A stretch of 64,000 nucleotides of DNA. Origin: Candidatus Woesearchaeota archaeon CG10_big_fil_rev_8_21_14_0_10_44_13 (GTDB lineage: Archaea > Nanobdellota > Nanobdellia > Woesearchaeales > UBA12501). The first letter of the stretch is position 1, and the number at the start of each line of letters is the position of its first letter. Below the pieces are notes generated by a model that ran no database searches, was not told the origin of the DNA, and saw only the letters and a program-made list of their open reading frames with translations. A program made the position numbers and the translations under genes. The stretch spans positions 11,692 to 75,691 of the forward strand of contig PCXZ01000030.1 in assembly GCA_002762985.1 (NCBI GenBank). The letters run 5' to 3'. Below are positions 1 to 26,811 of this stretch, one piece after another.

Positions 1-260
1 GTTGCTACCCTGGAGATTGTCTCATATTCTGAGAAGACCGCAGTGAAGAATATCACTGACGGCCTGAAATCAGACAGCATCTTTTTGACTGCGCTTTTTT
101 TGCTTCTCTCGGTCAGGATAAGCAGATCCGTGTCGTGGCCTTTTGATTTCAACAGTGATGAGATGTAAGATATGCCCATCTGTATCCATATCATATCTGC
201 GAGTGGCTTAGAAGCCTGTTTATACATTGAAAACATGCTATAAACGAATAATACCCTCAT
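1..260 (-). CDS. Cobalamin-binding radical SAM protein, N-terminal part (runs off the left edge)
   Basis: Not in the ORF track; translated by hand from ATG at 260: MRVLFVYSMFSMYKQASKPLADMIWIQMGISYISSLLKSKGHDTDLL...FRPSVIFFTAVFSEY. This matches the B12-binding N-terminus of the four complete paralogs in the window. GGGGG SD-like site upstream. Confidence 0.7.
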   Translation of the reverse strand, partial: MRVLFVYSMFSMYKQASKPLADMIWIQMGISYISSLLKSKGHDTDLLILTERSKKSAVKKMLSDFRPSVIFFTAVFSEYETISRVA

Positions 261-365
261 AAAACCCCCTTAATTCCAGTATGGATTAAAAGAAAGAGGA
301 GTATATATAATTTTGGGTTGTGCATACTGCTATAGCAGCATAAGCCTTAGATTTTTATGGTTCGT

Positions 366-2507
366 CTACCTGCCCCAATCTATCCTGTAGATAATGATCC
401 TTCCTTGAAGAGCATTGGCAGTATCGCTAAAAAGTTCAAAATGCTCCAGACCCTTCCCTTTCATGAAGTACAGTTTTACAAATAATGTATTCAAAAGCTC
501 GGTTCTTACCAGGACAGACTTGTAAACGATGGTTTTGCCAGACTGCTCAGGATAGATCAGCAGGGAATATGGGCCTGTCTGGTCTGAGTGAAATATCTCT
601 TTCTTGCCGACTATAACCAAGGGGAAGGAAATCCCTTTGTAAGTCGTCTCTCCGTTTGTCATATCCACATCAAAATTTTCACCGCATATCATGTGATCTG
701 TTCCTTTTGTGAAACATTTTGACGGGGCGGATATCGAGGGTATTTTTGGGAACTGGAAAGGGCCTTGGTCATTGCTATACCAATCATTAAAATATAATAA
801 CAGATCGGTCTTCAATATAAGGCCGTTATCCAAGAGGATGAACGACTCTGGAGGACTGCAAAAATCATTGCTGAGGTTAGTTTTTGGATCTCCAGGCCAT
901 TGTCCGCAGTCCAGCATTTTTAAGATTGCCAAAGACTCAGATTCGTTGCCTTTGAACAAAGCTCTTGAAAACCAGTACATTCTCGGTTCAAAAGACCCTC
1001 CTATTCCATTATCCATCAAGACTTTCCTCTTTGAGGAGTGATGGTAAAGATATCCTTTGTCCCACCATAGGTTTATTATGGAATTATCGGATGAACCTTT
1101 CATAAGGTTATTGCCAACGTCATTGATCAGATCATTCATTGAGGGGGTTCTTTCTGATCTTTCGGACAATGAACTTGTCAATGGGGCGATCATCGCCAAA
1201 ATCAAGACTGATAAGACAATACAATTAACTATGCTCTTTGATTGAAATATCTTTATATTCCAAAAAAATTCTTTGAGATGACTGAATATGAAGGACAAGC
1301 CGTAAGATTGCATGATCGATAAAGGTATTGCAAAAAAGGATATGAACCTTATTGATTTATATCCTGCAAAAAACATTATCATGGACCACCACAATATGAA
1401 TAGGCAATATATTGATTTATTGTTTATCCTCTTATTAACCAATATGATCAACAGAGAAAATAATGTTAATGCCAGGTAGATGTAACCATTCACAATATAA
1501 GTCATGACATTCTCTCCTTTGCCTCTGGCCTCAACAGCCTGTTTGGCTGAGAATAGCTCGGTTGTAAGCGATACTGCGCCCAGGTATGTCTTATCATCTA
1601 TTAGCCCTATCCTAGTTTTAACGTGATGCACCTCGCTTTTTATATAATCCTTATCCTTCAATAAAAAGAATGATGTTGTCGATATTATCACCACTAAAGC
1701 GAGCATCAGGATGTGCTTCCTTGATCCGCTCCTGATTATTCTGGAAGTGAGGAAGTAAAGAAGGTAAAGAACAATAAAAGAGATCATTATCGCAAGTATG
1801 TAAAAATAACCGCTCCATGCAAACCTGAATAAAAGGATAGAAGGTATCATCAGACCGAAGCAGATGATTGATTTTGCCTTATTTTTGAATTCTAACCCCT
1901 CAAAGAAAAGCAATACTATGGCAAGCGAGAAAAAAAGATTGAGAAAATTAGTGTCTGTGAACCCGGGCTGGGTTGCTGTGAAGAATTGAGGATTGATGGC
2001 CAGCAGGAATGAGGCAAAGAAACCACCGATGTTGTTTGTCAATTTTCTGGCTATGAAAAAGATGAGGATTATAGAAAATAAAGAGAAGACGAAAGGAAGC
2101 CAAAATGCAGCCCTTATGAGGGTGAAACTGCCGTCGAATAACCTGAGCGCCTTGTATGAGAAGATCTCAAGATAAGGCAAGAGATATTTTGATTGCCTGC
2201 CATCAAGTATATTGTTGCCATTTATTATGCTTTCTGCTTCATCCAGAAAATAATAAGAATCGACACCATAAAGATAGAGGTCACCATTCTTGTCCTTGTA
2301 TATATCCTTAAGTTGCTGAGAAATGGCCATTTTATCAGCTGAATTGCTTGATTCAGCCCATTTGTCTGTTATCGGAAGATTTGCCGCATATAACCTTAGG
2401 ATTATCGCTGCCAGCAGGGAGATTGATAGGAGGATTACAATCTGGTACTTGAAAAATGGTGAGATTAGCTTGCCTTGCTGTTTTCCTTTATTTTTTGATT
2501 TGACCAT
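366..2507 (-). CDS. aglB: STT3/AglB-family oligosaccharyltransferase, divergent second paralog
   Basis: Multi-TM N-half and soluble C-domain. Motifs GVDSYY (EL1 Asp), FTDTN (DxD-like), SLTTE (TIxE/SVSE-like) and WWDKG (WWDYG-like). Shares LPITDxWAxSS with the AglB at 50744. Confidence 0.85.
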   Translation of the reverse strand: MVKSKNKGKQQGKLISPFFKYQIVILLSISLLAAIILRLYAANLPITDKWAESSNSADKMAISQQLKDIYKDKNGDLYLYGVDSYYFLDEAESIINGNNILDGRQSKYLLPYLEIFSYKALRLFDGSFTLIRAAFWLPFVFSLFSIILIFFIARKLTNNIGGFFASFLLAINPQFFTATQPGFTDTNFLNLFFSLAIVLLFFEGLEFKNKAKSIICFGLMIPSILLFRFAWSGYFYILAIMISFIVLYLLYFLTSRIIRSGSRKHILMLALVVIISTTSFFLLKDKDYIKSEVHHVKTRIGLIDDKTYLGAVSLTTELFSAKQAVEARGKGENVMTYIVNGYIYLALTLFSLLIILVNKRINNKSIYCLFILWWSMIMFFAGYKSIRFISFFAIPLSIMQSYGLSFIFSHLKEFFWNIKIFQSKSIVNCIVLSVLILAMIAPLTSSLSERSERTPSMNDLINDVGNNLMKGSSDNSIINLWWDKGYLYHHSSKRKVLMDNGIGGSFEPRMYWFSRALFKGNESESLAILKMLDCGQWPGDPKTNLSNDFCSPPESFILLDNGLILKTDLLLYFNDWYSNDQGPFQFPKIPSISAPSKCFTKGTDHMICGENFDVDMTNGETTYKGISFPLVIVGKKEIFHSDQTGPYSLLIYPEQSGKTIVYKSVLVRTELLNTLFVKLYFMKGKGLEHFELFSDTANALQGRIIIYRIDWGR

Positions 2508-2613
2508 TTAAATCGTTTATTTTTTAGGGGGGGTTATTAGGGTATGAACAACAAGGGCCTAAAATGGTAAGTTTTATAAAGATTGCGCATATCTATCAAT
2601 CCGTGAGTTTAAA

Positions 2614-3863: not shown

Positions 3864-4871
3864 ATGAAAAAAAAGATATTTATAACGGGTGTTGCTGGTT
3901 TTCTTGGATCTCATCTCGCTGATAGGATGATAGGAGAAGGCCACCATGTGATAGGATGTGATAGTCTCATAGGGGGGTATCTTGATAATGTCCCTCCAGA
4001 GGTAGAATTCTACCAGTATGACTGCAACTATCTTAATTCTATGAAGAAGATAACAAAAGAAGTGGATATAGTCTATCATTGCGCTGCCACAGCTTATGAA
4101 GGGCTGAGTGTTTTCAGCCCTTACATTGTCACAAAAAACGTGTTCCAGATAACTGCGTCTGTGCTGTCTGCATCAATATCAAATGGTATCAAAAGATTCG
4201 TGTTTACAAGTTCTATGGCCCGTTATGGAAAAAATAAGGTCCCTTTTGAAGAGTCGATGGCCCCGAAGCCCGAAGATCCGTATGGCATCGCAAAATACTC
4301 ATCTGAATTATTGATTGAAAACCTATGCGGGACCCATGGGATGGAGTATGTGATTGCTGTTCCGCATAATATAATAGGACCCAGACAGAAATATGACGAT
4401 CCGTACAGGAATGTCGCATCTATCATGATAAATATGATGCTGCAGGGAAAACAGCCGATAATATATGGGGATGGCAGGCAAAAAAGATGTTTCTCATTCG
4501 TAAATGACTGCATCCAATGTATGGAAAAGCTGGCTTTTCAGAAAAATGTTGCAGGAGAAGTGATAAACATAGGCCCTGACGAAGAATTCATCACCATAAA
4601 CGAGCTTGCAGAGAGAATAGCCAAACTTCTTGACTTCAAGCTGAAACCCAGGTATTTCTCTGACAGGCCCCAGGAGGTGAAGCTTGCAACCTGCTCAGCA
4701 GACAAGGCTAGAAAGCTTATAGGATACAAGACAGAATACAATCTTGATAAAGGCCTGAAGGAGATGATAGACTGGATAAAGCAAAGGGGCCCAAAACCAT
4801 TCAAATACCATATAGACCTCGAGATAATAAATAACAAAACGCCGGTCACATGGAAAGAAAAATTATTCTAA
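3864..4871 (+). CDS. NAD-dependent epimerase/dehydratase (extended SDR, UDP-glucose 4-epimerase-like)
   Basis: ITGVAGFLGSH Rossmann motif, PYGIAK (YxxxK), IYGDGRQKRCFSFV. Confidence 0.9.
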   Translation: MKKKIFITGVAGFLGSHLADRMIGEGHHVIGCDSLIGGYLDNVPPEVEFYQYDCNYLNSMKKITKEVDIVYHCAATAYEGLSVFSPYIVTKNVFQITASVLSASISNGIKRFVFTSSMARYGKNKVPFEESMAPKPEDPYGIAKYSSELLIENLCGTHGMEYVIAVPHNIIGPRQKYDDPYRNVASIMINMMLQGKQPIIYGDGRQKRCFSFVNDCIQCMEKLAFQKNVAGEVINIGPDEEFITINELAERIAKLLDFKLKPRYFSDRPQEVKLATCSADKARKLIGYKTEYNLDKGLKEMIDWIKQRGPKPFKYHIDLEIINNKTPVTWKEKLF

Positions 4872-5419
4872 ATATCCTTTTCCATATGGTCTATCCTTTT
4901 GATTATTTTTGCTGCATCGTAAAGATTTTCTGCTATAAAATCGGGTTTTGAGTTGTGTAAATTGTCATTTCCTGCCTTGCCTGTCTTGACAAGTATTGTT
5001 TTACATGAAGCATCGTTGCCCATTTTTACATCAGCAGTCTTATCTCCGATGACATAGCTTTTACTAACATCTATTCTGAACTCTTTCTCTGCTTCTTTTA
5101 TGAATTTTATGCTTGGTTTTCTGCAACCGCATCCCTCATCGGGGTTGTGCGGGCAGTGATATACCTTTGATATATTTATGCCATTTTTCGAAAATAATGC
5201 AAACATATGTTCATTCAGTTTGTAGAAATCTTTCTCAGAGTAATGCCCTCTGCCTATGCCGGACTGGTTTGTGATTACTATCAAAAGATATCCGGCATCC
5301 TGCAGCATCCTTAATGCATCGATTGTTCTAGGGATAAGCTTGAAGGCCTCGATTTTATGCACATACTCTCTATCAACATTGATTGTGCCGTCCCTGTCTA
5401 GAAATATTGCCTTTGCCAT
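4868..5419 (-). CDS. gmhB: D-glycero-D-manno-heptose 1,7-bisphosphate phosphatase
   Basis: HAD motif FLDRDGTIN, ITNQSGIGRG, Zn motif CPHxxxxxCxCRKP, IGDK; last gene of the heptose operon. Confidence 0.92.
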   Translation of the reverse strand: MAKAIFLDRDGTINVDREYVHKIEAFKLIPRTIDALRMLQDAGYLLIVITNQSGIGRGHYSEKDFYKLNEHMFALFSKNGINISKVYHCPHNPDEGCGCRKPSIKFIKEAEKEFRIDVSKSYVIGDKTADVKMGNDASCKTILVKTGKAGNDNLHNSKPDFIAENLYDAAKIIKRIDHMEKDI

Positions 5420-5437
5420 TCTTTCATTTCCTGTGCC

Positions 5438-6397
5438 TTAATAGTTCAAAAACCCCTTATTGAGATAATTGAGGACATAATCCATCACGCCCAGTTCAAG
5501 GCTGTAAAAATCTTGTTTATACCCTGCTTGCCTTAGCTTCACAATATCAGCCTGTGTAGAATACTGGTATTTCTCAGCCAGGCCATTAGGCATATCGACA
5601 TAATCTATCTTGGGGTCCAATCCTAATGAATTGAACACAGATTTAGCCAGATCATTGAATGTCCTTGCTTCTCCTGTACCTATATTGAATATGCCGTTTA
5701 TTGCCTTATTATCTATCATAAACATGATTACGGACAAAACGTCCTTCACATAGACGAAATCTCTCTTCTGCTCACCATCATTGACCCCCGGCTTATATGA
5801 TTTGAAAAGATTTACTTTGCCTTGTTTCTTGATCTGGTTGAAGGAATGGAAGATTACAGAAGCCATTGAACCCTTATGGTATTCGTTTGGGCCATATACA
5901 TTGAAGAATCTCAATCCGATCCACTGCGGCGGCTTCTTTTTTGATGAAAGAACATATTGATCAAATAATCTTTTTGTCTCGCCATAGATATTCAAAGGTT
6001 TTAGCTGTTCGGTCAGTGAATCATCATAGCCCAGGCTGCCGTCGCCGTAAGTTGCTGCGCTGCTTGCATAAATCAACCGGCAGTTATTATTTGCGCACCA
6101 ATCATATATCTCCTTGCTAAAGTAAAAGTTATTTTTCATTAAGTAATCCCCATTTGTCTCTGTTGTGGACGTGCAAGCGCCCATATGGATCACTAGATCA
6201 ATGTTTTCGGAAGAATTGAGAAGTCCGGTCAACTGGCTCTTGTCGACAAAATCCTTATATTTTAAAGTTGCGAGATTCTTGCAATTGCTCATCTCTTTTA
6301 CATCATCCACAATTATGATATCCTGGATCTTCCTGTTATTAAGCTCTTTTACCATGCAGCTTCCAATGAATCCTGCGCCACCGGTTAAGATTATCAT
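5438..6397 (-). CDS. hldD: ADP-L-glycero-D-manno-heptose 6-epimerase
   Basis: TGGAGFIGS, HMGACTSTTE, YASSAATYG, PLNIYGETK, RFFNVYGPNEYHKGSMASV, QYSTQAD. Confidence 0.95.
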   Translation of the reverse strand: MIILTGGAGFIGSCMVKELNNRKIQDIIIVDDVKEMSNCKNLATLKYKDFVDKSQLTGLLNSSENIDLVIHMGACTSTTETNGDYLMKNNFYFSKEIYDWCANNNCRLIYASSAATYGDGSLGYDDSLTEQLKPLNIYGETKRLFDQYVLSSKKKPPQWIGLRFFNVYGPNEYHKGSMASVIFHSFNQIKKQGKVNLFKSYKPGVNDGEQKRDFVYVKDVLSVIMFMIDNKAINGIFNIGTGEARTFNDLAKSVFNSLGLDPKIDYVDMPNGLAEKYQYSTQADIVKLRQAGYKQDFYSLELGVMDYVLNYLNKGFLNY

Positions 6398-6422
6398 TCT
6401 TTTACCATCCTGCTAAAAAATT

Positions 6423-7892
6423 TTATTTAGCATTAAAATGATTGTTGATTATATTGTTTATTATCTTTGTTGTTGATATTTCTCCTTTTAGTGGGATAAT
6501 AATCACTTCACCACCCTGCTTCTCAACAACATCCTTTCCAACAACATCTTCAACCTTATAATCGCCGCCTTTAACAATTATGTTGGGCATTATTGATTTG
6601 ATGACATTTAAAGGTGTATCTTCATCAAAGAAAATCACATAATCAACACACTCGATGGCAGAAAGCATCTCAGCCCGTTCATTCTCGGGTATTATCGGCC
6701 TGTTCTTACCCTTGATCCTCCTAATTGAAGCGTCTGTATTAAGACCAAGAATGAGAGCATCCCCTAATCTCCTTGCCTCCTGGAGATATTTTGTATGACC
6801 TGCATGAAGTATGTCAAAACAACCGTTTGTCCAAACAACTTTCCTGCCGTTTAGTTTCAGCTCTTTGACAATCTCCTTTAGTTCACTTATATCCTTTATC
6901 TTTTTGTTGCCTTTCTCAAATAAGCTTATAAGTTCATTTTGACTGACTGTAGAAGTACCGAACTTGCCGACAACTATGCCCGCGGCATAGTTTGCCATTA
7001 TGGTTGCCTCATACAACGTTGCTTTTGCAGCTATTGCAAGTGCAAGTGTTGCTGTCACAGTATCTCCTGCACCCACAATATCGAATACCTCTTTTGCTTC
7101 GGTGGGTATATGTGAAATATTCCCATTCTTCTCGAACAAAGACATGCCATTCTCTCCCCGCGTTATCAGTATATTGCTATTTAAGGTAAAAACCATCTTT
7201 CTGCCGATATTTTCAAGCTCTTCTTCTGTTTTCGGAACGGATTTCATCAGTGAGGTGATGTCCTTGACATTTGGTTTTATGAGGTATGTTCCTTTATAGA
7301 AGGAGATATTCTCTGGTTTTGGATCGACTACGATTGGCTTGTTATGTTTTTTACATAGATCGATTATTTTTATTGAGAGACTCTCTGTGATGGCTCCTTT
7401 GTTGTAATCTGAGATAACAACAGCGTCTGTCTCTTTTATCTTCTTTAAGATTCCCACCATAATCCTCTTTTCAGTAGAGTTATCTATCTTGCATTTGTCT
7501 TCCTTGTCCATCCTCAAGAGCTGATAATTTTGTACAATGACTCGTGTCTTTATTGTTGTTGGCCTATTTTTTGAGATGATTACTTTACTTGTGCTTATAC
7601 CTCTTCTTTTAAGCTCATCAAACAGCTGATTTTTGCCTTCATCAGGGCCAGCTAATCCAAAAAGAGTTATCTTTGCTCCAAGGGCTGCAAGATTGGCTGC
7701 TACATTAGCTGCCCCGCCCGGAAGGCAGTATTCTTCCTTCACGTCGACTATCTGCACTGGGGCTTCTTGGGAAAGTCTTTTGACTTCACCTAAAACGAAC
7801 TTGTCGAGCATTATATCTCCTATAACAAGTATCTTCTTATCCTTAAAATCCGGTATTATCTCTGCCAGCCTGTGTTTCATATGTACCCCCAT
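6423..7892 (-). CDS. hldE: Bifunctional heptose 7-phosphate kinase / heptose 1-phosphate adenylyltransferase
   Basis: PfkB domain (GDIMLD, GGAANVAAN, SDYNKG, DIVGAGDTV) fused to a cytidylyltransferase-like domain (TNGCFDILHAGH, LNTDASI, KGGDY, STT). The start may be ATG 7880. Confidence 0.95.
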   Translation of the reverse strand: MGVHMKHRLAEIIPDFKDKKILVIGDIMLDKFVLGEVKRLSQEAPVQIVDVKEEYCLPGGAANVAANLAALGAKITLFGLAGPDEGKNQLFDELKRRGISTSKVIISKNRPTTIKTRVIVQNYQLLRMDKEDKCKIDNSTEKRIMVGILKKIKETDAVVISDYNKGAITESLSIKIIDLCKKHNKPIVVDPKPENISFYKGTYLIKPNVKDITSLMKSVPKTEEELENIGRKMVFTLNSNILITRGENGMSLFEKNGNISHIPTEAKEVFDIVGAGDTVTATLALAIAAKATLYEATIMANYAAGIVVGKFGTSTVSQNELISLFEKGNKKIKDISELKEIVKELKLNGRKVVWTNGCFDILHAGHTKYLQEARRLGDALILGLNTDASIRRIKGKNRPIIPENERAEMLSAIECVDYVIFFDEDTPLNVIKSIMPNIIVKGGDYKVEDVVGKDVVEKQGGEVIIIPLKGEISTTKIINNIINNHFNAK

Positions 7893-7960
7893 TATATCCT
7901 TTGGATTTTTTGAGATATATAAATATTTTTGTTAATGCCGCCTATAAAAATAAAAATTCT

Positions 7961-8530
7961 TTATGCCACCTCTCTCTCTATGAGATGGCATATTATATGG
8001 CCCACAGTTATATGTGCTTCCTGTATCCTGGGTGTGCTGTCAGAAGGAACTATAAGGCTGATATCAGCGATATCTTTTATTGCGCCCCCTCCCCTTCCTG
8101 TAAAAGCGATTGTGAACGCTCCGTTCTTTTTTGCTTGCACTAGGCCTTTGATGACATTCGTCGAATTGCCGCTTGTCGTGAGTCCTATCACCACATCCCC
8201 TTTTTTGACTAGGCCTTCAACCTGCCTCTCGAATATCCTGTCAAACCCCCAATCATTGCCTATTGCAGTTATCAAGGAAGTGTTTGTTGTGAGAGCTATT
8301 GCGGGGATTGCTCTCCTTCCCTTAAGTTCGAATTGGTGGATCAATTCAGTTGCTATATGCTGTGCGTCAGAAGCGCTTCCGCCATTGCCAAAAAGTATCA
8401 ACTTCCCCCCTTTCCGGCAAGATTCTATTATCTTATTCACTACCAAGATTATCTCTTCAGTTAGAGTTTCCGCTATCTTTTTCTTAACATCAATACTGTT
8501 GCCAAGGCTTTCTAGTATGAATTCTTTCAT
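7961..8530 (-). CDS. gmhA: Sedoheptulose 7-phosphate isomerase
   Basis: SIS domain: GNGGSASDAQH, TAIGND, TTSGNS, RIQEAHITVGH. Confidence 0.95.
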   Translation of the reverse strand: MKEFILESLGNSIDVKKKIAETLTEEIILVVNKIIESCRKGGKLILFGNGGSASDAQHIATELIHQFELKGRRAIPAIALTTNTSLITAIGNDWGFDRIFERQVEGLVKKGDVVIGLTTSGNSTNVIKGLVQAKKNGAFTIAFTGRGGGAIKDIADISLIVPSDSTPRIQEAHITVGHIICHLIEREVA

Positions 8531-10110: not shown

Positions 10111-10118
10111 GCAATAAA

Positions 10119-17326: not shown

Positions 17327-17327
17327 T

Positions 17328-18134
17328 ATGGCTCTCAATGAATTTAATAACATAAACAGGGAATGGCTTGAAGGGAACACATTAAAAAAGATAAAAGAGC
17401 ATATGGTGCTTCACAAAGGATTTATGGCCATAATAGATAAGACCGCGCAGAGAATCAATAAAGATAAGGTAAAATCCCTGGAGATAGGGTGCAGCACTGC
17501 GATAGACTCCTACCTTCTTGCTGAAAAAAACAAAAATATAGAGGCCCATTGCATTGATATCTCGCCGGAATCTATAAAAACTGTCAAGAGAATCGGCAAA
17601 CATTTCAGATTGGGAGTGTCTGCTGATGTGATGGATGCAGAGAGGATGGATTTCAAGGATGGTTTCTTTGATATTGTTTTCAGTCAGGGGGTCATTGAGC
17701 ATTTCAGGAATCCTGATAAAGTCATGGGAGAGCAGAAGAGGGTGCTGAAAAAAGGAGGGTTTTTGGTCATAGATGTCCCGCAAAAATACACGTTTTACAC
17801 GCTAATAAAACACAGACAGATAAGGAAGGGGACGTGGCCCTGGGGCTGGGAGACTGAATATTCAAAAAGACAACTGGTCAGGTTGGGCAAGAGGCACGGG
17901 TTGAGGCTAGAAAAGGTCTATGCTTATGGATATGATGGTTATATGGGGTTTCTGAGGCATCCTTTTAAAAAAGTGGCAAAAAGAAATATTTATAAAGGTT
18001 CTAAAGTTTTATTTGCCTTATGTAAGGCTTTATACGGCACAATAGGATGGATTTGGGATGCTTTGTGGGGGTTCGTTGAAAGAAATTTTGGCGTATATCT
18101 TATGATGTCTATTGTTGCTGTCTTCAGGAAATGA
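17328..18134 (+). CDS. Class I SAM-dependent methyltransferase
   Basis: SLEIGCS, CIDIS, FDIVFSQGVIEHF, RVLKKGG. Confidence 0.88.
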   Translation: MALNEFNNINREWLEGNTLKKIKEHMVLHKGFMAIIDKTAQRINKDKVKSLEIGCSTAIDSYLLAEKNKNIEAHCIDISPESIKTVKRIGKHFRLGVSADVMDAERMDFKDGFFDIVFSQGVIEHFRNPDKVMGEQKRVLKKGGFLVIDVPQKYTFYTLIKHRQIRKGTWPWGWETEYSKRQLVRLGKRHGLRLEKVYAYGYDGYMGFLRHPFKKVAKRNIYKGSKVLFALCKALYGTIGWIWDALWGFVERNFGVYLMMSIVAVFRK

Positions 18135-18155
18135 GCCTTACAAGGGGAAGTATCC

Positions 18156-19607
18156 ATGAAATTTAGCAGAGTATTGCTTGTAAATCCAAACTATTCCAAT
18201 AAATTCTTTGCTAAAGGGAGGGCTGTTCCGCGCGTAGGTCTGGGATATATAGCCCAGGTCCTTGAAGAAAGCAGAATAAAATATGGGGTGTTCGATGTTG
18301 ATCTTGGGTATTCTTTTAATGATTTAGTGAAGAGAATAAGGGTGTTTAGGCCGGATTTGATCGGCATAAGCATGATGACATTCAGATATAAGCAGATCTA
18401 TGCTGTTGCGGGCAAATTAAAAAAAATTTTTCCAGATATAAACATTGTTGCAGGCGGACCTCATGTTTCCACATTAAGAGAAAAGGTTTTGGAAGATTGC
18501 GCCAGCATTGACTATGCCATTGTCCTTGAAGGCGATGAAACGATCATTGAGCTTTGCAAGGGCAAGAACCTAAAAAAAATAAAGGGGCTCTTATGGAGAA
18601 ACAGTTATGGCAAAGTGATTTATAATGGTGATAGGCAGTTTATAGAAGATCTTGACAGGATCCCTTTCCCGAAATATGGCAAATTTGAGCTGAATAAGTA
18701 CGCTACGAAAACAATAGCCATCATCTCATCAAGGGGTTGTCCCTTCAACTGCATCTACTGCCCTGTCCGTGTTGCTATAGGGAGGAAATTCAGGGTAAAG
18801 AGCGTGAAAAATGTCCTAAATGAGATCAGATACTGGTACGATAAAGGGTATAGGAACTTTGATTTCATAGATGACAACTTTACCTTAATAAGAGAGAGAG
18901 TGGAGAGATTATGCGGACTTATAATGGAAGAAGGACTGAAGGACCTTAAGCTATCATGTCCTAACGGAGTAAGGGCTGACAGGGTTGATAGGGATCTTTT
19001 GATCAAGATGAAAAGGGCAGGATTCTGGCATCTTGCGTTTGGTGTTGAAAGCGGAAGCGATAAAATCCTTAAATTGATGAAAAAAGGCGAGGAATTGGAA
19101 GTAATTGAAAAGGCCATAAAAGAGGCATGCGGATTGGGATATGATGTGGGTTTATTTTTCATTTTTGGCCTGCCGGGAGAGACTGCAGAAGACATAAACA
19201 AGTCAGTAGGCCTGGCTTTGAAGTATCCGGTGAATGACGTGAAGTTCTATCCTGTGCTCCCTTACCCTAATACTGAGCTTTTTGATGATATCGAAGAAAA
19301 AGGTTATTTCATAATACCGCCGGAAGAATATCTGAATAGGATCAACCCTGTTGTCAACAATCCTGTTTTTGAGACCCCTGAATTGAGCGTGATGCAGAGA
19401 AAGAAGATGTTCGATTATCTAAAAGGGGTGGAGAGGGAGGTATACAACAGGAAAATAAGGCGGAAGTTCAAGAGATTCGGACTTGCGGGCCTGATAGCAT
19501 CATCCATTGTAAGCTCGAGGCCATTCCAGTATGCATACATAAGAAGCGGACTTTTTAACAGGATTATCTATAAGATAAAAAATAAGGGGTATATGAAAGA
19601 TGAGTGA
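18156..19607 (+). CDS. Cobalamin-dependent radical SAM protein
   Basis: RVGLGYIAQVL, AGGPHVS, EGDE; SSRGCPFNCIYC; FGVESGS; PYPNTELF. Confidence 0.92.
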   Translation: MKFSRVLLVNPNYSNKFFAKGRAVPRVGLGYIAQVLEESRIKYGVFDVDLGYSFNDLVKRIRVFRPDLIGISMMTFRYKQIYAVAGKLKKIFPDINIVAGGPHVSTLREKVLEDCASIDYAIVLEGDETIIELCKGKNLKKIKGLLWRNSYGKVIYNGDRQFIEDLDRIPFPKYGKFELNKYATKTIAIISSRGCPFNCIYCPVRVAIGRKFRVKSVKNVLNEIRYWYDKGYRNFDFIDDNFTLIRERVERLCGLIMEEGLKDLKLSCPNGVRADRVDRDLLIKMKRAGFWHLAFGVESGSDKILKLMKKGEELEVIEKAIKEACGLGYDVGLFFIFGLPGETAEDINKSVGLALKYPVNDVKFYPVLPYPNTELFDDIEEKGYFIIPPEEYLNRINPVVNNPVFETPELSVMQRKKMFDYLKGVEREVYNRKIRRKFKRFGLAGLIASSIVSSRPFQYAYIRSGLFNRIIYKIKNKGYMKDE

Positions 19608-21180
19608 GAGCAAGGTTTCAGGGTATACTGCGCAGGTCATGATACTGAATATAATGGGGTTCATATTCGGTTTTGTCGTGCAACTCCTTATCGCATACTA
19701 TTTCGGAGCCAGCAAAGAGGTCGATGCTTTTGTAATAGCCAATATAATCCCCAATATGATATATGGTTTTACCAATGTCATGCTGATGACTTCGCTGATA
19801 GTTGTCCTTACTGATTATAGGATAAGATATGGTGAAAAGAGGGCATGGAGATTCGCAAGCAGCATCTTCAACATTTCATTCCTGGCTTTAAGCATCGCTG
19901 CAGCCATGATATTCTTCTTATCGCCTGTTCTTGCAAAGATAATAGCTCCAGGTTTTGATCCAGGAAGGATTGATCTTACTGTCAAGATGATAAGAATCCT
20001 GTCGATATTAGTGATATTCAACGGCCTTAGCAGCATCACAACAGGTGTGCTTTATACAAAAAAGCATTTTATTGCTTCCTCTTCGTTCAGGTCCATAATA
20101 AACGTGATAACCATATTCTCGGTTGTCTTATTAAGCGTTAAAATGAGGATATTCTCGTGGGCTTTCGGGGTCGTGCTTGGAGCAGGGATAGCCCTGTTAA
20201 TCCAGATGATAGTCATACTGAAAGACAGAGCAGATTATAACCACCGACTGAGCCTTGATTATAAGGGGATAAAAAAACTGTTGGTCATATCTTACCCCCT
20301 AATAATAACCTCATTGTTATTCTATTTCAATAAGTATGTAAGCCAGGCCATAGCATCCACTCAGCAAGAAGGTGATGTTGCGATATTGAACTACGCTTTT
20401 TTGATTGTATCATTCCCCGTATCATTTTTTGGGGGCAGCATAGCCACAGCAATATTTCCCTCCTTGACAGAGCACAATGCAAGAAAAAACAAGGAAAACC
20501 AGAGGGTTTTACTGACAAGCTCAATCAGCATATTGACGTTCATCCTGCTCCCATTGACGAGCATATTCATCGTGTTGAGGGTCCTTATAATAAAGTTGTT
20601 CCTGGAGTATGGCATGTTCAGCAAAGAGATAACAGCAACAACTGCGCCTGTCCTTCTTTTTTACTCTGTAGGGATATTGTTTTTCGGCATAGAGCTTATT
20701 ACAGGCCAGACATTTTATTCTATCGGTAAGATGAAAATGAGGTCAATCCTGTTGGGTTTAACATTCATAATAAATATTGCGCTTAGTTTCCTGCTTGTAG
20801 GCCCATTCTCAATAAAAGGTTTGGCTGCGGCAACAACCATCGCATATATGATCACGGTCCCATTATCAGTATATATCCTCTACAGATGCCTTGACATTGG
20901 ATTCAAGGAACTGCTTGTTCTTTTGTCTAAGACGATATTGGCTTCAGCGTTTATGGGGGGGGTTATTTTCATGGGTCTTAAACTTTTTTTGACTCTTGGT
21001 CTTGATAGCAGGGTTTATGCTGGTGCTGCTTTCATCATGCTTATCGCAATCGGTATTGGGTCATATCTGCTATTTGCAAGAATGATAAGATTAAAAGAGA
21101 TGTATACTACAAATGAGATAATAAGGAACCTGCTATCCAGGGTGGATATAATCAAGAAAGGTGCAGAAAAAGATGGTTAA
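19600..21180 (+). CDS. murJ: MurJ/MviN-like flippase
   Basis: AYYFGASKEVDAF, IIAPGF, DVAILNYAFLIVSFP, IATAIFPSL, GLAAATTIA; about 14 TM segments. Confidence 0.82.
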   Translation: MSESKVSGYTAQVMILNIMGFIFGFVVQLLIAYYFGASKEVDAFVIANIIPNMIYGFTNVMLMTSLIVVLTDYRIRYGEKRAWRFASSIFNISFLALSIAAAMIFFLSPVLAKIIAPGFDPGRIDLTVKMIRILSILVIFNGLSSITTGVLYTKKHFIASSSFRSIINVITIFSVVLLSVKMRIFSWAFGVVLGAGIALLIQMIVILKDRADYNHRLSLDYKGIKKLLVISYPLIITSLLFYFNKYVSQAIASTQQEGDVAILNYAFLIVSFPVSFFGGSIATAIFPSLTEHNARKNKENQRVLLTSSISILTFILLPLTSIFIVLRVLIIKLFLEYGMFSKEITATTAPVLLFYSVGILFFGIELITGQTFYSIGKMKMRSILLGLTFIINIALSFLLVGPFSIKGLAAATTIAYMITVPLSVYILYRCLDIGFKELLVLLSKTILASAFMGGVIFMGLKLFLTLGLDSRVYAGAAFIMLIAIGIGSYLLFARMIRLKEMYTTNEIIRNLLSRVDIIKKGAEKDG

Positions 21181-22930
21181 ACATGTTTTGGGCATAAGCA
21201 ACCTGATGGATTCAGGGATCACTCTGCTTGAAGGGCAGAAGATAGGCCTCGCCCTGAATGAAGAGAGGCTTGTGAGGAAGAAGAACATAGACGGCATTCC
21301 AAGCTTGTCACTAGGGCATGTAAATGAAAAGCCAGATATCATAGCATTGGCAGGAGAGGGATTGAAAGGCAACCCCCACAACTTCAGAAGATTTCTTAGG
21401 TTTTCGAGGGGATCTTCACTTGCGAATTATCCCAGGGATTTCTACGAGTTCATATCAAAAAGGAGGGATTCCAGGCTCTACTCAAAAAAACTGGTAGATT
21501 ATGCCAAAAGAAGGTTCAAGGGTTCAAAAATTTTTCTTACAGATCACCACATGTGCCATGCAGCAGGAGCTCATTTTGCCAGTGGAAACAGGGACAGTAT
21601 AGTAATAACTTCTGATGGGTGGGGGGATGGAATCTCAAGCGGGGTTTATCACGGGAAAGGCAAGGATATCGCGATGTTGTTCAGTTCTCCGTGCACAGCC
21701 TCTTTAGGCAGGTTTTATCTCGATATAACCCGGTTTTTGGGTTTTCGTCCGCATAGGCACGAAGGGAAGATAACAGGATTGGCTGCATACGGCAAAGTCA
21801 ATGAAAGTCTGCTCAAAAAATTCATGAAGATGGTAAATTTTGATGAAAAAAATGTGAGATTCACATCAGATGTGAAGAGATATTACAGATTCAGTAACCT
21901 ATTGCAGGATCTTAGGTGGAAATTTATTGTCAAGAAAGATTACAAAGAGAGGTATGACGGGAAAAAGAAGGCAGAGTTCCTTAATATCGGTGATTTTAAG
22001 CCCCTCCTCCTAAGATTGCCTGATGAAGACATTGCAGCCACTGCCCAATATTGGGTTGTTGAACTGATGAAAAGATATGTCACTGCAATAGAAGATAATG
22101 TGGGGAGAAAAGATATGTGTCTTGCAGGCGGTGTTTTTGCAAATGTTGGGATAAATAAGGCAATCCATGAGATATCATGTAAGAAGATTTTCATATCCCC
22201 AAATATGGGTGATGGTGGCCTGAGCATGGGTGCAGCTTTCCTTGCAGCTGCAGAAACGCAGGAGAACCCGAGATTTAAATTTGAGAATGTGTATCTTGGA
22301 CCTGAATTCTCAGACAATGAGATCGAGGATGACCTTAAGAGGAGCGGGTGTGAGTATCACAAAAATGAAGAGATAGAATATGAGATTGCAGAACTGCTGT
22401 CTAAAGGGAAGGTTGTTGCAAGATTCAATGGAAAGATGGAATTCGGGCCCAGGGCATTGGGCAACAGGAGCATACTTTATACACCCATAGACCGTTCAGT
22501 GAATGAGTGGCTTAATAAGAGGCTCAAAAGGACAGAATTCATGCCTTTTGCCCCGACGACACTGGGTAGATTCGGGCATAAATGCTATGATAACCTAAAG
22601 AACGCAGAAAATGCGGCCAGATTCATGACAATCGCTCTTGATTGCTCCGAGTGGATGAAAGACAGCTGCCCTGCAGCAGTCCATGTAGATGGTACAGCAA
22701 GACCTCAGCTTCTTAGGAAGGAAGACAACCCAGATTATTATAAAATAATAAGCGAATTCAATAAGATAACAGGATTGCCTTCTGTAGTTAACACATCGTT
22801 TAATATGCATGAAGAACCCATTGTGTGCTCGCCATGGGACGCGATAAGGGCTTTCAAATTAGGGCACCTGGATTATCTTGCCATTGGTAGGTTCATGGTC
22901 AAAAACAGGATAAGATCTGAAGGGAGTTGA
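21161..22930 (+). CDS. O-carbamoyltransferase (NodU/CmcH/TobZ family)
   Basis: NEERL, HHMCHAAGA, DGWGD, EGKITGLAAYG, LAGGVFANV, MEFGPRALGNRS, HVDGTARPQ, NTSFNMHEEP. Confidence 0.93.
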   Translation: MQKKMVKHVLGISNLMDSGITLLEGQKIGLALNEERLVRKKNIDGIPSLSLGHVNEKPDIIALAGEGLKGNPHNFRRFLRFSRGSSLANYPRDFYEFISKRRDSRLYSKKLVDYAKRRFKGSKIFLTDHHMCHAAGAHFASGNRDSIVITSDGWGDGISSGVYHGKGKDIAMLFSSPCTASLGRFYLDITRFLGFRPHRHEGKITGLAAYGKVNESLLKKFMKMVNFDEKNVRFTSDVKRYYRFSNLLQDLRWKFIVKKDYKERYDGKKKAEFLNIGDFKPLLLRLPDEDIAATAQYWVVELMKRYVTAIEDNVGRKDMCLAGGVFANVGINKAIHEISCKKIFISPNMGDGGLSMGAAFLAAAETQENPRFKFENVYLGPEFSDNEIEDDLKRSGCEYHKNEEIEYEIAELLSKGKVVARFNGKMEFGPRALGNRSILYTPIDRSVNEWLNKRLKRTEFMPFAPTTLGRFGHKCYDNLKNAENAARFMTIALDCSEWMKDSCPAAVHVDGTARPQLLRKEDNPDYYKIISEFNKITGLPSVVNTSFNMHEEPIVCSPWDAIRAFKLGHLDYLAIGRFMVKNRIRSEGS

Positions 22931-22940: not shown

Positions 22941-23735
22941 ATGAAAAAACAAAAATTATCTGTGGTTATCGCTGTAAAAAATGAAGAAGACAATATGGGA
23001 AGGTGTCTTGACAGCGTCCGCTGGGCTGATGAGATAATCATAATAAATAACGGCAGCACAGATAAGACAGCTGAGATATGCAAAAGATATACTAAAAATA
23101 TCTATTCTTACCCTAAGAAAGCACTTATACCCCAGATACAGAATGAAGGGATAAAAAGAGCGACTAAGGAGTGGGTGATGATTTTAGATGCCGACGTCGT
23201 GGTTCCTGCTGCGGCCAAAAGTGAGATACTGGATAAGATAACAAGAGGGAATAACGACGGGTATTATCTCTATCATAAGCATTATTGTTTCGGAAAATTC
23301 TTATCACATAACAATACTAATGATATCATGAAGCTTTTTAGGAGAGATAAAGGGAGATTCGAGTGTGAGGCTGCTCACTGCCACATAAAGATAGAGGGAA
23401 GGATAGGAAGTATAAACAGCCCCCTGCTGCATTATGCTCACCCAGATATATCGACACAAGTCAAAAAAAGCAATCTCTACTCATCACAGGATGCAGAGAT
23501 GATATTCAGGACAGGAAAAGGCGGCCTGCTGAATAAGAGAATCAGAAAGATAAATATATACACCTTATTAATAGAGCCGGTTATGTTCACATTTTATATG
23601 TATTTTTTTAATAGGCTGTATAAAGAGGGCTTGCGAGGAGTGATATTAAGCATACTGATGGGCAATTATCTGTTCATGGAAAGAGCAAAAGTCCTGGAAT
23701 TGCAATTCAAGGCAATAAGTTCAAAACAAGGATGA
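22941..23735 (+). CDS. GT2 glycosyltransferase, WaaE/KdtX-like
   Basis: SVVIAVKNEEDNMGRCLDSVRWADE, GSTDKT, ILDAD, LLHY. Confidence 0.87.
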   Translation: MKKQKLSVVIAVKNEEDNMGRCLDSVRWADEIIIINNGSTDKTAEICKRYTKNIYSYPKKALIPQIQNEGIKRATKEWVMILDADVVVPAAAKSEILDKITRGNNDGYYLYHKHYCFGKFLSHNNTNDIMKLFRRDKGRFECEAAHCHIKIEGRIGSINSPLLHYAHPDISTQVKKSNLYSSQDAEMIFRTGKGGLLNKRIRKINIYTLLIEPVMFTFYMYFFNRLYKEGLRGVILSILMGNYLFMERAKVLELQFKAISSKQG

Positions 23736-23746: not shown

Positions 23747-25435
23747 ATGGTTTACGTACTGGGTATAACAAGGCCGTGGGGATTTAACAACGCCGCAGTT
23801 TTGCTGAAAGATGGAGAGATAGTTGCAGCTATAGAAGAAGAGAGGCTGAACAGGATAAAATATGCAAAAAACATGCTTCCAAAGATGGCCATTGAACATT
23901 GCCTGAAACAAGAAGGCATAAGAATTGAAGATGTTGACAGAATTGCTGTAGGCAGCGATTCCTGCCTGAAGACAGCATCAAAACAGGCGGCTTTGTTATT
24001 AAGAAAACCTTGGAACCCCTCGTTCATGCGGCTTCCATTAGAAGGGTATAAAGTTTTTAGAAAATATGGGTTCTTTAAGAGATACAAGAGAAAGATTGAT
24101 TATATAACCCACCATGATTCGCATTCTGCATCAGCATTCTACTGCTCAGGTTTTGATAAGTCGAACATACTGTCTATCGATGGTATAGGCGAGACCACTT
24201 CAACGGCAATAGGGTACGGCGTCAGGGATAAGATGAAACAGGTTGAAGATTATGATTTCACAAACTCCCTTGGTTTGCTCTACTCTTCATTCACGAAGCA
24301 TCTCGGATTCAGGGAGCACATAGATGAGTGGAAAGTGATGGGATTATCAAGTTACGGCAAGCCTATTTTCCCGATTGACGGCCTGATAAGATTCTCAAAA
24401 AAAGGGTATTCGACTGATACTTTCTACAGGTTTTGCGATTACCACAGATCCTTAATCAAATATATAAAAGAAGGCACTAAACTAAGGCTTGATGCCAATT
24501 TCACTGAAAGGTTCGGCATAAGGAGGAAGGAAGATGAGAAGATCATAAAAAGGCATACGAATGTGGCTGCTACGTGCCAGACAATATATGAGCAGGCGTT
24601 AATAAAACTGGCCACCTTCATCAATGACCTCACCCGGATAAGGTATTTCTCTCTGGCAGGGGGTTGTGCACTTAATTGTGTTGCAAATGGCGCATTGTTA
24701 GAACAGGATTTTGTTGATGACATATTTGTCCAACCGGCTGCAAATGATGCAGGAACAGCGCTAGGTGCGGCGATTTTGTCCTCTTTTGGGCTCGGAGTGA
24801 AGAAAAAGGCCAGGATGGAACATGTGTATTATGGTCCGCAGTATTCCGATGAAGAGATAAAGAGAACGCTACAAAGGAACAGGCTGAAATTTGATTATTA
24901 CAAGGATATTGAAGGAAAGGCTGCGGAGCTGCTGGCAAAGGAGAAGCTTGTCGGGTGGTTCCAGGGAAGGATGGAATTCGGGCCAAGGGCACTGGGCAAC
25001 AGGAGCATACTTGCCACGCCTACAAGGATCAGGATGAGGGACAAAGTGAACATTTCTGTCAAGCATAGGGAGTATTGGAGGCCTTTTGCACCGTCAATGC
25101 TCGAAAATGCGGCAGATGAGTATCTCGAAAACGCCCACAAAAGCCCGTTCATGAATCTAAACTTCAGGGTTAAGCAAGAGAAATGGGGGGAGATACCCGC
25201 GGTAGTGCATATTGATGGCACTGCAAGGGTGCAGACTGTAAACCGGTCTGCAAATGCCAAGTACTTCAGGCTTATAAGCGAATTTGAAAAAGAGACAGGG
25301 ATACCCGTATTGCTGAATACCTCGTTCAATGATAATGAAGAGCCGATAGTATGCTCCCCGGAAGACGCTACATTGACTTTCAAGAAGACAGGATTGGATT
25401 ATCTTGCAATAGGCAATTACCTGGTGAGAAAATGA
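23747..25435 (+). CDS. O-carbamoyltransferase (NodU/CmcH/TobZ family)
   Basis: AAIEEERLNRIK, HHDSHSASAF, DGIGE, EWKVMGLSSYG, LAGGCALNC, MEFGPRALGNRS, HIDGTARVQ, LNTSFN. Confidence 0.93.
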   Translation: MVYVLGITRPWGFNNAAVLLKDGEIVAAIEEERLNRIKYAKNMLPKMAIEHCLKQEGIRIEDVDRIAVGSDSCLKTASKQAALLLRKPWNPSFMRLPLEGYKVFRKYGFFKRYKRKIDYITHHDSHSASAFYCSGFDKSNILSIDGIGETTSTAIGYGVRDKMKQVEDYDFTNSLGLLYSSFTKHLGFREHIDEWKVMGLSSYGKPIFPIDGLIRFSKKGYSTDTFYRFCDYHRSLIKYIKEGTKLRLDANFTERFGIRRKEDEKIIKRHTNVAATCQTIYEQALIKLATFINDLTRIRYFSLAGGCALNCVANGALLEQDFVDDIFVQPAANDAGTALGAAILSSFGLGVKKKARMEHVYYGPQYSDEEIKRTLQRNRLKFDYYKDIEGKAAELLAKEKLVGWFQGRMEFGPRALGNRSILATPTRIRMRDKVNISVKHREYWRPFAPSMLENAADEYLENAHKSPFMNLNFRVKQEKWGEIPAVVHIDGTARVQTVNRSANAKYFRLISEFEKETGIPVLLNTSFNDNEEPIVCSPEDATLTFKKTGLDYLAIGNYLVRK

Positions 25436-26811
25436 AGACCAAGATTCTTTTTGTAGATGCGCATGATGCGAAAAAAAGAGTTGAATCAGTTTATCCTCCA
25501 CTTAATCTTGCATATCTTGCTTCATATCTGAAAAAGAATCTGGGATGCAAAGATTTGTCATTAAAGATAATAACAGAAAGATATGAAAAAGAGATATTAT
25601 CATTCTCTCCGGACATGATAGGGGTGTCCTGTGTAACACAGAATTATGGCCTTGCCATAGAGATAGCATCCTTTGCGAAAAAAAGAGGAATCCCGGTGAT
25701 AATAGGGGGAGTGCACATATCAAACCTGCCTGAATCATTGAACAGGAATTTCGATGTAGGGGTGATAGGGGAAGGAGAAAGGACATTATCTGATCTAGTC
25801 AGGCTTTTTGAGAAAAAAAGAAGTTTTCCTGAAAATGAATTGTCAAAGATAAAAGGGCTTGTCTTTTTTAATAAGAAAGGGAAGATTATATTCACAGGAG
25901 AGCAGGAGCTTATGAAAGATGTTGATGCAATACCATTTCCATGCAGAAGCCTCCTTGATATTGATAAAGAGACTATCTTCATGATGTCATCTCGCGGATG
26001 TCCTTATAAATGTTACTTCTGCTCTTCTTCTTCATTCTGGGGAAAGGCCAGATTCCATTCAGCCGATTATGTGGTTGATGAAATCAGGCAGGTGATGAAT
26101 GATTACTCCCCTAAAAAAATAATATTCTTTGATGACTTGTTTATAGCGGATCTGGGCCGGCTGAGGAAAATAGTCTCAAAGATAGAAAAGTCAGGAATAA
26201 ATAATAAGGTCACATTCCATGTATCAGCCAGAGCAAATCTGGTGAATGATGAGGTTATATCACTTCTTAAGAGGATGAATGTGAGTGCAGTAAACATCGG
26301 TTTTGAGTCAGGATCAGATGAGACACTTAGGTACCTTAAAGGGAGCGCAATTTCGGTCAAAGACAATATAAATGCGATATCCTTGCTGAAGAAGTCGGGA
26401 ATCTTTATTGCAGGATCATTTGTTATGGGGTGCCCTATTGACAGCAAAAAGACCATAATGGACACATATAGATTCATCAAAAAACACAAGATTAATGATT
26501 TTGCAGTGTATGTGCTGACCCCATTTCCTAAGACAAAGGCATGGGATTATGCATTATCAAAGGGGCTTGTCTCAAATGATATGGATTTCTCAAGGCTTTC
26601 TATTGATTATGAGGGGGATTATAGGGACAAGATAACTATCTGCCCAAACATGTCAAAAAATGAAATCTACTCGGTTTACAGGAAATTTCTGAGATTGCAT
26701 ACTTTCAGGAGGGTTATGTCTGCAGTTGATATGGCATTCAAAAGGCCAAAAGATTTGATGAAGGCAGTTAATCGAAGGCTCAGGTTTAGGGATATTGGAG
26801 GGTATAATTGA
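25432..26811 (+). CDS. Cobalamin-dependent radical SAM protein
   Basis: Likely start MKTKIL at 25432 (ATGA overlap with upstream stop); PPLNLAYLASY, GGVHIS, GEGE; SSRGCPYKCYFC; GFESGS. Confidence 0.92.
   Translation: MKTKILFVDAHDAKKRVESVYPPLNLAYLASYLKKNLGCKDLSLKIITERYEKEILSFSPDMIGVSCVTQNYGLAIEIASFAKKRGIPVIIGGVHISNLPESLNRNFDVGVIGEGERTLSDLVRLFEKKRSFPENELSKIKGLVFFNKKGKIIFTGEQELMKDVDAIPFPCRSLLDIDKETIFMMSSRGCPYKCYFCSSSSFWGKARFHSADYVVDEIRQVMNDYSPKKIIFFDDLFIADLGRLRKIVSKIEKSGINNKVTFHVSARANLVNDEVISLLKRMNVSAVNIGFESGSDETLRYLKGSAISVKDNINAISLLKKSGIFIAGSFVMGCPIDSKKTIMDTYRFIKKHKINDFAVYVLTPFPKTKAWDYALSKGLVSNDMDFSRLSIDYEGDYRDKITICPNMSKNEIYSVYRKFLRLHTFRRVMSAVDMAFKRPKDLMKAVNRRLRFRDIGGYN

Follow-up and report, generated by a model that had tools for sequence, protein, structure and literature searches.

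Class B-type radical SAM enzymes of new, uncharacterised orthogroups in a surface-glycan island of an archaeon without cobamide synthesis or a known importer

Results

Five B12-domain radical SAM genes

The window analysed in the present study is a stretch of 64,000 nucleotides from Candidatus Woesearchaeota archaeon CG10_big_fil_rev_8_21_14_0_10_44_13, corresponding to C18:11692-75691 (contig C18, PCXZ01000030.1) of the assembly GCA_002762985.1, which comprises 1.515 Mb in 36 contigs and is estimated to be approximately 98.5% complete. It carries five genes, rSAM1 to rSAM5, for radical S-adenosylmethionine (SAM) proteins with a B12-binding domain, and these are here classed as class B-type enzymes whose orthogroups are new, uncharacterised, and devoted to surface-glycan loci, in this case in an archaeon without cobamide synthesis or a known importer. 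Four of the genes lie on the plus strand: rSAM1 (10119..11579; motif CPFKCQFC), rSAM2 (14003..15523; CPANCIFC), rSAM3 (18156..19607; CPFNCIYC), and rSAM4 (25432..26811; CPYKCYFC). Longer open reading frames (ORFs) open at 9999 for rSAM1 and at 25351 for rSAM4, and ATG codons lie at 10119 and 25432. On the minus strand, the window includes the N-terminal 86 amino acids of rSAM5 (3..260), whose full gene (479 amino acids; C18:10512-11951) runs off the window. In a Pfam scan, all five proteins matched both the B12-binding domain (PF02310; 54.6-88.4 bits, with the cut-off at 32.1) and the Radical_SAM domain (PF04055; 74.9-91.6 bits), and each contains one CxxxCxxC motif. The Pfam matches, motifs, and ATG codons bear out the genes that a first-pass annotation, made from the sequence alone, had placed at 10119, 14003, 18156, and 25432. 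The partial gene that it reported at 1-260 is real, and both domains are present when the gene is taken at full length; its position, however, is 3-260 on the minus strand.

The five proteins share 25-33% identity with one another. In a tree built with approximately 60 paralogues of at least 400 amino acids from related archaea and 30 metagenomic homologues, whose bacterial label is partly assumed from the members carrying source names, they fell into five separate clades. They are old paralogues, and a recent tandem duplication was rejected on the same identities and clades. The whole genome gave nine B12-domain hits, all in ORFs of approximately 460-530 amino acids and eight with a canonical CxxxCxxC motif. 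Six of the nine genes fall within 69.4 kb of C18, a concentration that random placement reached in 7e-5 of trials. The sixth of these, on the minus strand at C18:78359-79864 (CPYDCTYC), lies approximately 2.7 kb past the window end in the same island, and of the window paralogues it falls nearest to rSAM5 in the tree.

Families and predicted fold

The five proteins were compared with the named class B families BchE, HpnJ, HpnR, PhpK, Sden_1168, KedN5, BzaD, MgmA, TsrM, and the ladderane-lipid radical SAM family. The nearest approach to a curated NCBIfam cut-off was that of rSAM2 to the Sden_1168 family, which it matched over nearly its full length with 332 bits against 575. All other scores on the named class B families were at most 222 bits against cut-offs of 251-775. 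The BchE, HpnJ, ApyD, and PhpK models gave 100-222 bits (cut-offs of 480-750), and the best match of rSAM3 was HpnJ with 188 bits (cut-off of 578). The model of AprD4-family diol dehydratases (NF033070) gave 52-113 bits against 500, and the families of radical SAM methyltransferases acting on ribosomally synthesized and post-translationally modified peptides (RiPPs), TIGR03975 and ApyD, gave 60-189 bits against 282 and 750. The proteins thus stay below the cut-offs of BchE, HpnJ, HpnR, PhpK, the ladderane-lipid family, and the RiPP families, and on these scores did not group with the lipid-modifying or tetrapyrrole enzymes, an outcome by which the first-pass annotation would have held its reading refuted.

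An AlphaFold2 model of rSAM2 built from 67 sequences had a predicted local distance difference test score of 94.8 and a predicted template modelling (TM) score of 0.93. Its best PDB matches in Foldseek were AprD4, TsrM, MgmA/QCMT, TokK, CysS, and OxsB, with E values of 1e-18 to 1e-24 (1e-18 to 1e-23 for the five other than AprD4), and its TM scores, normalized to the query, were 0.62-0.69 to structures of the TokK/TsrM/QCMT/OxsB type. In the sequence search against the PDB, AprD4 led for both rSAM2 (E 1.7e-23) and rSAM3 (E 6.3e-18), and QCMT was also among the leaders. The domains and motifs of all five proteins, together with the fold of rSAM2, are those of the class B architecture with an N-terminal B12-binding Rossmann domain, the type referred to as 'class I' of the B12-domain radical SAM proteins (PMC12931638). 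Across the paralogue alignment, G127, G128, E151, C238, C242, and C245 are invariant and S98, H130, G150, and G152 nearly so. The N-terminal motifs GxS, GGxH, and GEGE are thus invariant or nearly invariant despite paralogue identities of 25-33%, which suggests that the N-terminal domain is a constrained cofactor domain.

The surface-glycan island

rSAM1 to rSAM4 are part of an array of 23 co-directional genes (8680-36156, plus strand) with intergenic distances of -29 to +76 bp. The remainder of the array encodes one Wzx-type and one MurJ-type flippase, four GT2 and four GT4 glycosyltransferases, one GT9 heptosyltransferase, one Wzy_C protein, five class I methyltransferases (MT1 to MT5), and two NodU/CmcH-type carbamoyltransferases (CT1 and CT2). 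ADP-heptose genes and GDP-mannose dehydratase genes flank the array, and the window holds two AglB/STT3 oligosaccharyltransferase genes.

The first array gene encodes the Wzx-type MOP flippase (8680..10110; PF01943). Between rSAM1 and rSAM2 lie MT1 (11576..12475; Methyltransf_23), which overlaps rSAM1 by 4 bp, GT2a (12453..13235), and MT2 (13222..13992), and between rSAM2 and rSAM3 lie GT2b (15531..16442), MT3 (16430..17326), and MT4 (17328..18134), all assigned with Pfam. rSAM3 is followed by the MurJ-family MOP flippase gene (19600..21180; PF03023, 231 bits), CT1 (21161..22930), GT2c (22941..23735), CT2 (23747..25435), and rSAM4, after which GT2d, GT4a, the GT9 heptosyltransferase gene, the Wzy_C polymerase/ligase-like gene, GT4b, MT5, GT4c, and GT4d complete the array (26855..36156). 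From rSAM1 to GT2d, the Pfam assignments reproduce gene for gene the order rSAM-MT-GT2-MT-rSAM-GT2-MT-MT-rSAM-MurJ-CT-GT2-CT-rSAM-GT2 read in the first-pass annotation. Its view of five radical SAM genes interleaved with glycosyltransferases holds for the four in the array, but rSAM5 lies outside, with AglB and ADP-heptose genes in between. Searches of the window GT2 proteins and methyltransferases against NCBIfam, and of MT1 and MT5 against the PDB, returned generic matches only, with no clue to the substrate.

Next to rSAM5, which an acyltransferase_3 gene and a PAP2 phosphatase gene also adjoin, the first AglB/STT3 gene lies on the minus strand (366..2507; PF02516, 76 bits). The sugar-nucleotide genes (3864..8530) comprise an epimerase gene on the plus strand (3864..4871) and, on the minus strand, genes for a GmhB-like HAD protein (4868..5419), an epimerase (5438..6397), an HldE kinase/adenylyltransferase (6423..7892), and a GmhA-like SIS protein (7961..8530). 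A bacterial-type ADP-heptose pathway (GmhA, HldE, GmhB, and epimerase; 4868-8530) is thus encoded in an archaeon, as are the GT9 heptosyltransferase and the Wzy_C/O-antigen-ligase-like protein at 29246-31845. The archaeal MurJ-family flippase, in the middle of the array and additional to the Wzx-type flippase, scored barely above the MurJ equivalog cut-off (TIGR01695; 239.3 bits against 235.55). The second AglB/STT3 gene (50639..53527, plus strand), divergent from the first, stands beside two large ORFs (43906-47535, 1209 amino acids; 47616-50405, 929 amino acids) that had no significant Pfam match and possibly encode surface proteins.

Related loci in other organisms

Orthologues with 45-57% identity occur in glycan clusters of Omnitrophota, Elusimicrobiota, Actinomycetota, and an Asgard archaeon. 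The relatives of rSAM2 are 48-57% identical to it, and those with a source name are mostly from Omnitrophota. On two Omnitrophota contigs, they stand among further B12-domain radical SAM genes and genes for methyltransferases, GT2, GT4, and Wzy_C, and one of the two contigs also carries a carbamoyltransferase gene. These loci also include fused genes that tie the families to one another: in GCA_028710715.1 (locus L003), a B12-domain radical SAM/class I methyltransferase fusion (P0110, 769 amino acids; 10001-12310) and a methyltransferase-GT2 fusion (458 amino acids; 16813-18189), and in another Omnitrophota locus (L002, 7963-9867), a GT4-methyltransferase fusion of 634 amino acids. The methyltransferase domain of P0110 showed a generic likeness only to the window methyltransferases (28.6% identity to MT3, E 3e-11). 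The orthologues of rSAM3, 48-54% identical, were found in Elusimicrobiota, Omnitrophota, and Actinomycetota, and relatives of rSAM3 lie in glycan clusters on two Elusimicrobiota contigs and one Actinomycetota contig. One of these loci is a clean operon of dTDP-sugar and glycosyltransferase genes with the radical SAM gene last.

A homologue of rSAM1 with 45% identity in tblastn lies on a Promethearchaeota (Asgard) contig (GCA_048939445.1; L036 1-6400), where its neighbours are two homologues of MT1 (33-35% identity), Wzx, and GT2, with a sulfatase-type gene nearby. This locus mirrors the window order Wzx-rSAM1-MT1-GT2a, and the rSAM1-MT1 pair is conserved.

Among 61 related archaea, 39 have homologues of the window radical SAM proteins, up to 25 or more per genome and often clustered. 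Twenty loci of these archaea contained 62 ORFs whose best match was a window radical SAM protein, 60 of them of at least 400 amino acids. BLAST to the window genes also identified 13 methyltransferases, 11 GT4, seven GT2, five epimerases, and four carbamoyltransferases in these loci. Pfam searches of the remaining ORFs added 14 GT2, 11 PMT_2 GT-C proteins, 11 other radical SAM proteins (eight with SPASM), six LPG_synthase_TM proteins, five sulfatase-type proteins, four Asn-synthase proteins, three DegT and three GFO/IDH/MocA proteins, and two UDP-Glc dehydrogenases. The link of the five proteins to glycan synthesis is thus well supported, both by the array and by the loci across phyla.

Origin and composition of the contig

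The 16S and 23S ribosomal RNA (rRNA) genes on contig C22 match archaeal Rfam models (1407 and 2646 bits), and the source organism is archaeal. The first-pass annotation, which wrote of a reduced-genome symbiont, had not stated the archaeal identity. The array region (window 8300-36300, C18:20000-48000) has a guanine-cytosine (GC) content of 37-41% compared with 44-46% in the genome, and its tetranucleotide correlation with the genome is r 0.889 compared with r 0.98-0.99 for C18 outside the island. Such a deviation is usual for surface-glycan islands and is also compatible with horizontal acquisition. The nesting of rSAM2 and rSAM3 among mostly bacterial sequences (where named) suggests that both may have undergone inter-domain transfer.

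A repeat of approximately 165 bp resembling a miniature inverted-repeat transposable element (MITE) was found at C18:92300-92480, with copies on C30, C14, C26, C36, and C21, that is, on at least six contigs in total. The possibility that a bacterial contig had been mis-binned into an archaeal bin was rejected on the MITE-like repeat that C18 shares with five other contigs, the tetranucleotide signature of the genome in C18 outside the island, the archaeal rRNA on C22, and the occurrence of the same protein on four contigs (the longest of 153,378 bases), which were read as independent assemblies of C18.

Discussion

In a 2022 review, the only class B radical SAM enzymes listed as acting on sugars are cobalamin-dependent C-methylases of natural-product pathways, namely GenK, GenD1, Fms7, and MoeK5 (PMC9204698), and in a 2026 review the words 'glycan', 'polysaccharide', and 'sugar' do not occur (PMC12931638). 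Neither review names a member with a cell-surface glycan as its substrate. Targeted full-text literature searches retrieved no description of loci in which radical SAM and glycan genes are combined in this manner, and for B12-binding radical SAM proteins in DPANN archaea they retrieved only work on archaeal glycerol dialkyl glycerol tetraether (GDGT) lipids.

The data show directly the domain architecture and motifs, the fold, the clustering, a glycan neighbourhood that is conserved across phyla, and the lack of cobamide genes. The substrate, the type of reaction, and the use of cobalamin we infer, and we propose a scenario to which we give about an even chance: rSAM1 to rSAM5 would be cytoplasmic enzymes that tailor sugars of a dolichyl-phosphate-linked or nucleoside diphosphate-activated glycan by radical hydrogen abstraction, most probably with methyl transfer from methylcobalamin, before the glycan is flipped and transferred. 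They would thus tailor the surface glycan that the island produces, each most likely acting in the cytoplasm on one sugar residue. This residue may be nucleotide-activated, but more probably a neighbouring GT2 or GT4 enzyme has by then added it to the dolichyl-phosphate-linked chain. The [4Fe-4S] cluster would cleave SAM, and the resulting 5'-deoxyadenosyl radical would remove a hydrogen atom from a sugar carbon that is not activated. According to the favoured version, the radical so formed on the sugar would accept a methyl group from methylcobalamin bound in the N-terminal domain, as in C-methylation of the GenK/MoeK5 type, and a second SAM would re-methylate the cobalamin. The class I methyltransferases and carbamoyltransferases may add O- or N-methyl and carbamoyl groups, the Wzx- and MurJ-type flippases may export the product, and AglB or the Wzy_C-like protein may transfer or polymerize it. 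The cobamide would need to come from outside the cell. The first-pass annotation had proposed radical C-methylation or rearrangement of surface-glycan sugars; its link to glycans stands, and sugar C-methylation is our leading guess for the chemistry.

Several results weigh against this scenario. None of the five proteins reached a curated NCBIfam cut-off, and the best fold match of rSAM2 was AprD4 (PDB 6fd2; TM 0.69-0.78), in which the fold occurs without cobalamin. In radical methylases, the lower axial side of the corrin is typically faced by a hydrophobic residue, which in TokK is Trp76 (PMC12931638); phmmer aligned Trp76 to Met103 of rSAM2, in a column that is variable (M, T, S, V, A, F) and has a gap in the loop. 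The 98.5%-complete genome contains no CbiB/CobD, no CobS, no FecCD/BtuC-type permease, and no T component (CbiQ) of an energy-coupling factor (ECF) transporter, while CbiB, CobS, FecCD, and the ECF component were detected in three or four of four archaeal control genomes. No cobalamin riboswitch was found in the genome, in a search whose control detected this element in bacteria only. CobS was absent from all 61 related archaea, though 39 of them have homologues of the radical SAM proteins. FecCD/BtuC-like genes, detected in seven of the 61, do not track these enzymes, as homologues occur in three of the seven relatives with such genes and in 36 of the 54 without. In addition, a homologue of rSAM1 with 43% identity in a 7.85-Mb bacterial genome (L035 9001-10365) lies outside any glycan cluster, directly following genes for an aldehyde:ferredoxin oxidoreductase and a polyferredoxin. 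The link to glycans is thus limited to the closer orthogroups and does not extend to the whole superfamily, and the wider family has other roles.

The first-pass annotation had called the enzymes cobalamin-dependent and expected cobalamin to be scavenged from a host. The former stays unproven, given that among solved structures the closest is that of the cobalamin-free AprD4. As to the latter, the genome cannot make cobamide, lacking CbiB and CobS, but it also has no known importer; uptake from a host is therefore something that our scenario demands and not something that was found. SufB/SufD (PF01458) were likewise absent from the genome; an IscU/NifU-type scaffold gene (C3:70560-70922), the sole iron-sulphur scaffold found, makes assembly of the cluster possible.

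The most serious alternative, which we nevertheless regard as rather unlikely, is that the enzymes tailor the glycan without cobalamin or without methylating it, the Rossmann domain having a structural or substrate-binding role as in AprD4. The chemistry would then be like that of AprD4, HpnJ, or OxsB, the options being 1,2-diol dehydration (deoxygenation), epimerization, oxidation, or an HpnJ/OxsB-like ring contraction to carbocycles. The missing cobamide assembly, importer, and riboswitch fit this alternative, as do the rank of AprD4, whose substrate is a sugar (paromamine), as top match in both sequence and fold, and that of HpnJ as the best NCBIfam match of rSAM3. Homologues of AprD4 and ArsL within the similarity network of B12-domain radical SAM proteins do not bind cobalamin (PMC12931638), and the fold alone is thus insufficient to establish cobalamin use. 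On the other side, the low scores on the AprD4 family model set the window proteins apart from that family, and three observations favour cobalamin use: all five proteins passed the PF02310 cut-off, the N-terminal half of rSAM2 aligned in phmmer to the cobalamin binders TokK and QCMT and not to the N-terminus of AprD4, and CobS was present in the one bacterial carrier genome searched, that of an actinomycetotal carrier of an rSAM3 orthologue. Furthermore, DPANN archaea take many host metabolites without recognized transporters, which we also count against a cobalamin-free enzyme.

It is improbable, in our view, that the substrate is not a sugar but the polyprenyl or dolichyl carrier, host-derived membrane lipids (compare the GDGT and hopanoid methylases), or surface proteins. 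Characterized class B members methylate hopanoids, and B12-binding radical SAM proteins are also mentioned in work on archaeal proteins that modify GDGTs. The incomplete similarity to the HpnJ, HpnR, and ladderane-lipid families, the acyltransferase_3 and PAP2 phosphatase genes adjoining rSAM5, the LPG_synthase_TM and sulfatase-type genes in the loci of relatives, and the non-glycan context of the 43%-identical homologue all point in this direction. However, the scores on the lipid families were all far below the cut-offs, and the genes that recur beside these enzymes in five phyla encode glycosyltransferases, flippases, and enzymes of sugar-nucleotide metabolism. A RiPP-type cluster, with a ribosomal peptide as the substrate of methylation by the class B enzymes before its glycosylation and export, is suggested by the partial matches to ApyD and TIGR03975 but was rejected as very improbable, because gaps of at most 76 bp leave no room for a precursor gene, the family scores are below the cut-offs, and the Pfam search of the array genes returned neither a peptidase nor a leader-binding RiPP recognition element domain. 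The deviating composition of the island and the nesting of rSAM2 and rSAM3 with mostly bacterial sequences would also suit recently acquired, decaying, or unexpressed cargo without function, but five intact frames with complete motifs, overlaps between neighbouring genes that suggest translational coupling, the paralogue swarms common in the order, and the unusualness of approximately 7 kb of dead genes in a 1.5-Mb genome leave this idea with hardly any probability.

Tailoring of surface sugars by the five enzymes would have consequences beyond this archaeon. Of the enzyme groups whose functions are largely unknown, the class B radical SAM enzymes are one of the largest. If the enzymes edit surface sugars, archaeal and bacterial glycans would hold a class of modifications, for example C-methyl, deoxy, or carbocyclic sugars, for which glycan analysis at present does not search, and the glycan loci of uncultured anaerobes would vary by radical tailoring in addition to glycosyltransferases. 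The nine B12-domain enzymes of a 1.5-Mb genome without a cobamide pathway or known importer point either to host-to-symbiont transfer of the cofactor or to a cobalamin-free subclass. More tentatively, and with considerable doubt, we suggest that Woesearchaeota-type DPANN archaea may use batteries of distinct B12-domain radical SAM enzymes to vary their surface glycans through radical C-H chemistry at lipid-linked sugars, as may the ultra-small anaerobes with which they share these genes by exchange, Omnitrophota and Elusimicrobiota included. Because the archaeal lineage lacks both cobamide assembly and a recognized importer, there would then be either a large cobalamin-independent radiation with new sugar chemistry (deoxygenation, carbocycle formation, or C-C branching) or intact cobamide obtained from hosts by an unknown route. 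The bacterial orthologues with 45-57% identity offer routes to biochemical testing.

Among the structurally characterized enzymes, TokK, TsrM, MgmA/QCMT, CysS, and OxsB share with the window proteins the fold of an N-terminal Rossmann domain with a partial TIM barrel and motifs of the GGxH/GEGE type. Their sequence identity to the window proteins is 15-20%, however, and they act on carbapenems, on tryptophan, on a glutamine of a protein, or on a nucleotide; the additional C-terminal domains of TokK and OxsB (660-740 amino acids) are missing in the window proteins (approximately 480-500 amino acids). AprD4, which is responsible for the C3' deoxygenation of apramycin, is the best match of rSAM2 and rSAM3 in sequence and of rSAM2 in fold and has a sugar substrate, but it binds no cobalamin and its family model scores the window proteins at 52-113 bits. 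HpnJ, which acts with the GT2 protein HpnI and HpnK in the cyclitol-ether branch of hopanoid synthesis, is likewise a class B enzyme paired with a GT2 protein and has a lipid-linked sugar as its substrate. It differs in the score of rSAM3 on its model (188 against 578 bits), in that no hopanoid genes were seen here, and in the neighbours, which in the window include flippases and oligosaccharyltransferases. Of the NCBIfam models, rSAM2 scores highest, though below the cut-off, on the Sden_1168 (SD_1168) family, whose members are B12-binding radical SAM methyltransferases; SD_1168 has been studied as a P-methylase in vitro, and its physiological substrate is unknown (PMC9204698).

GenK and GenD1 (gentamicin), Fms7 (fortimicin), and MoeK5 (moenomycin), which are set beside the window proteins by architecture and gene families, are also class B enzymes and act on an unactivated sugar carbon within a glycoside. 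They belong to actinomycete antibiotic pathways, whereas the window holds five divergent paralogues at an archaeal surface-glycan island with AglB, Wzx, and Wzy_C. In the moenomycin pathway, the class B enzyme is accompanied by glycosyltransferases, Asn-synthase-like amidotransferases, and a carbamoyltransferase of the NodU/CmcH type, which work on a lipid-linked saccharide, and these gene families occur in the present island and in the loci of its relatives.

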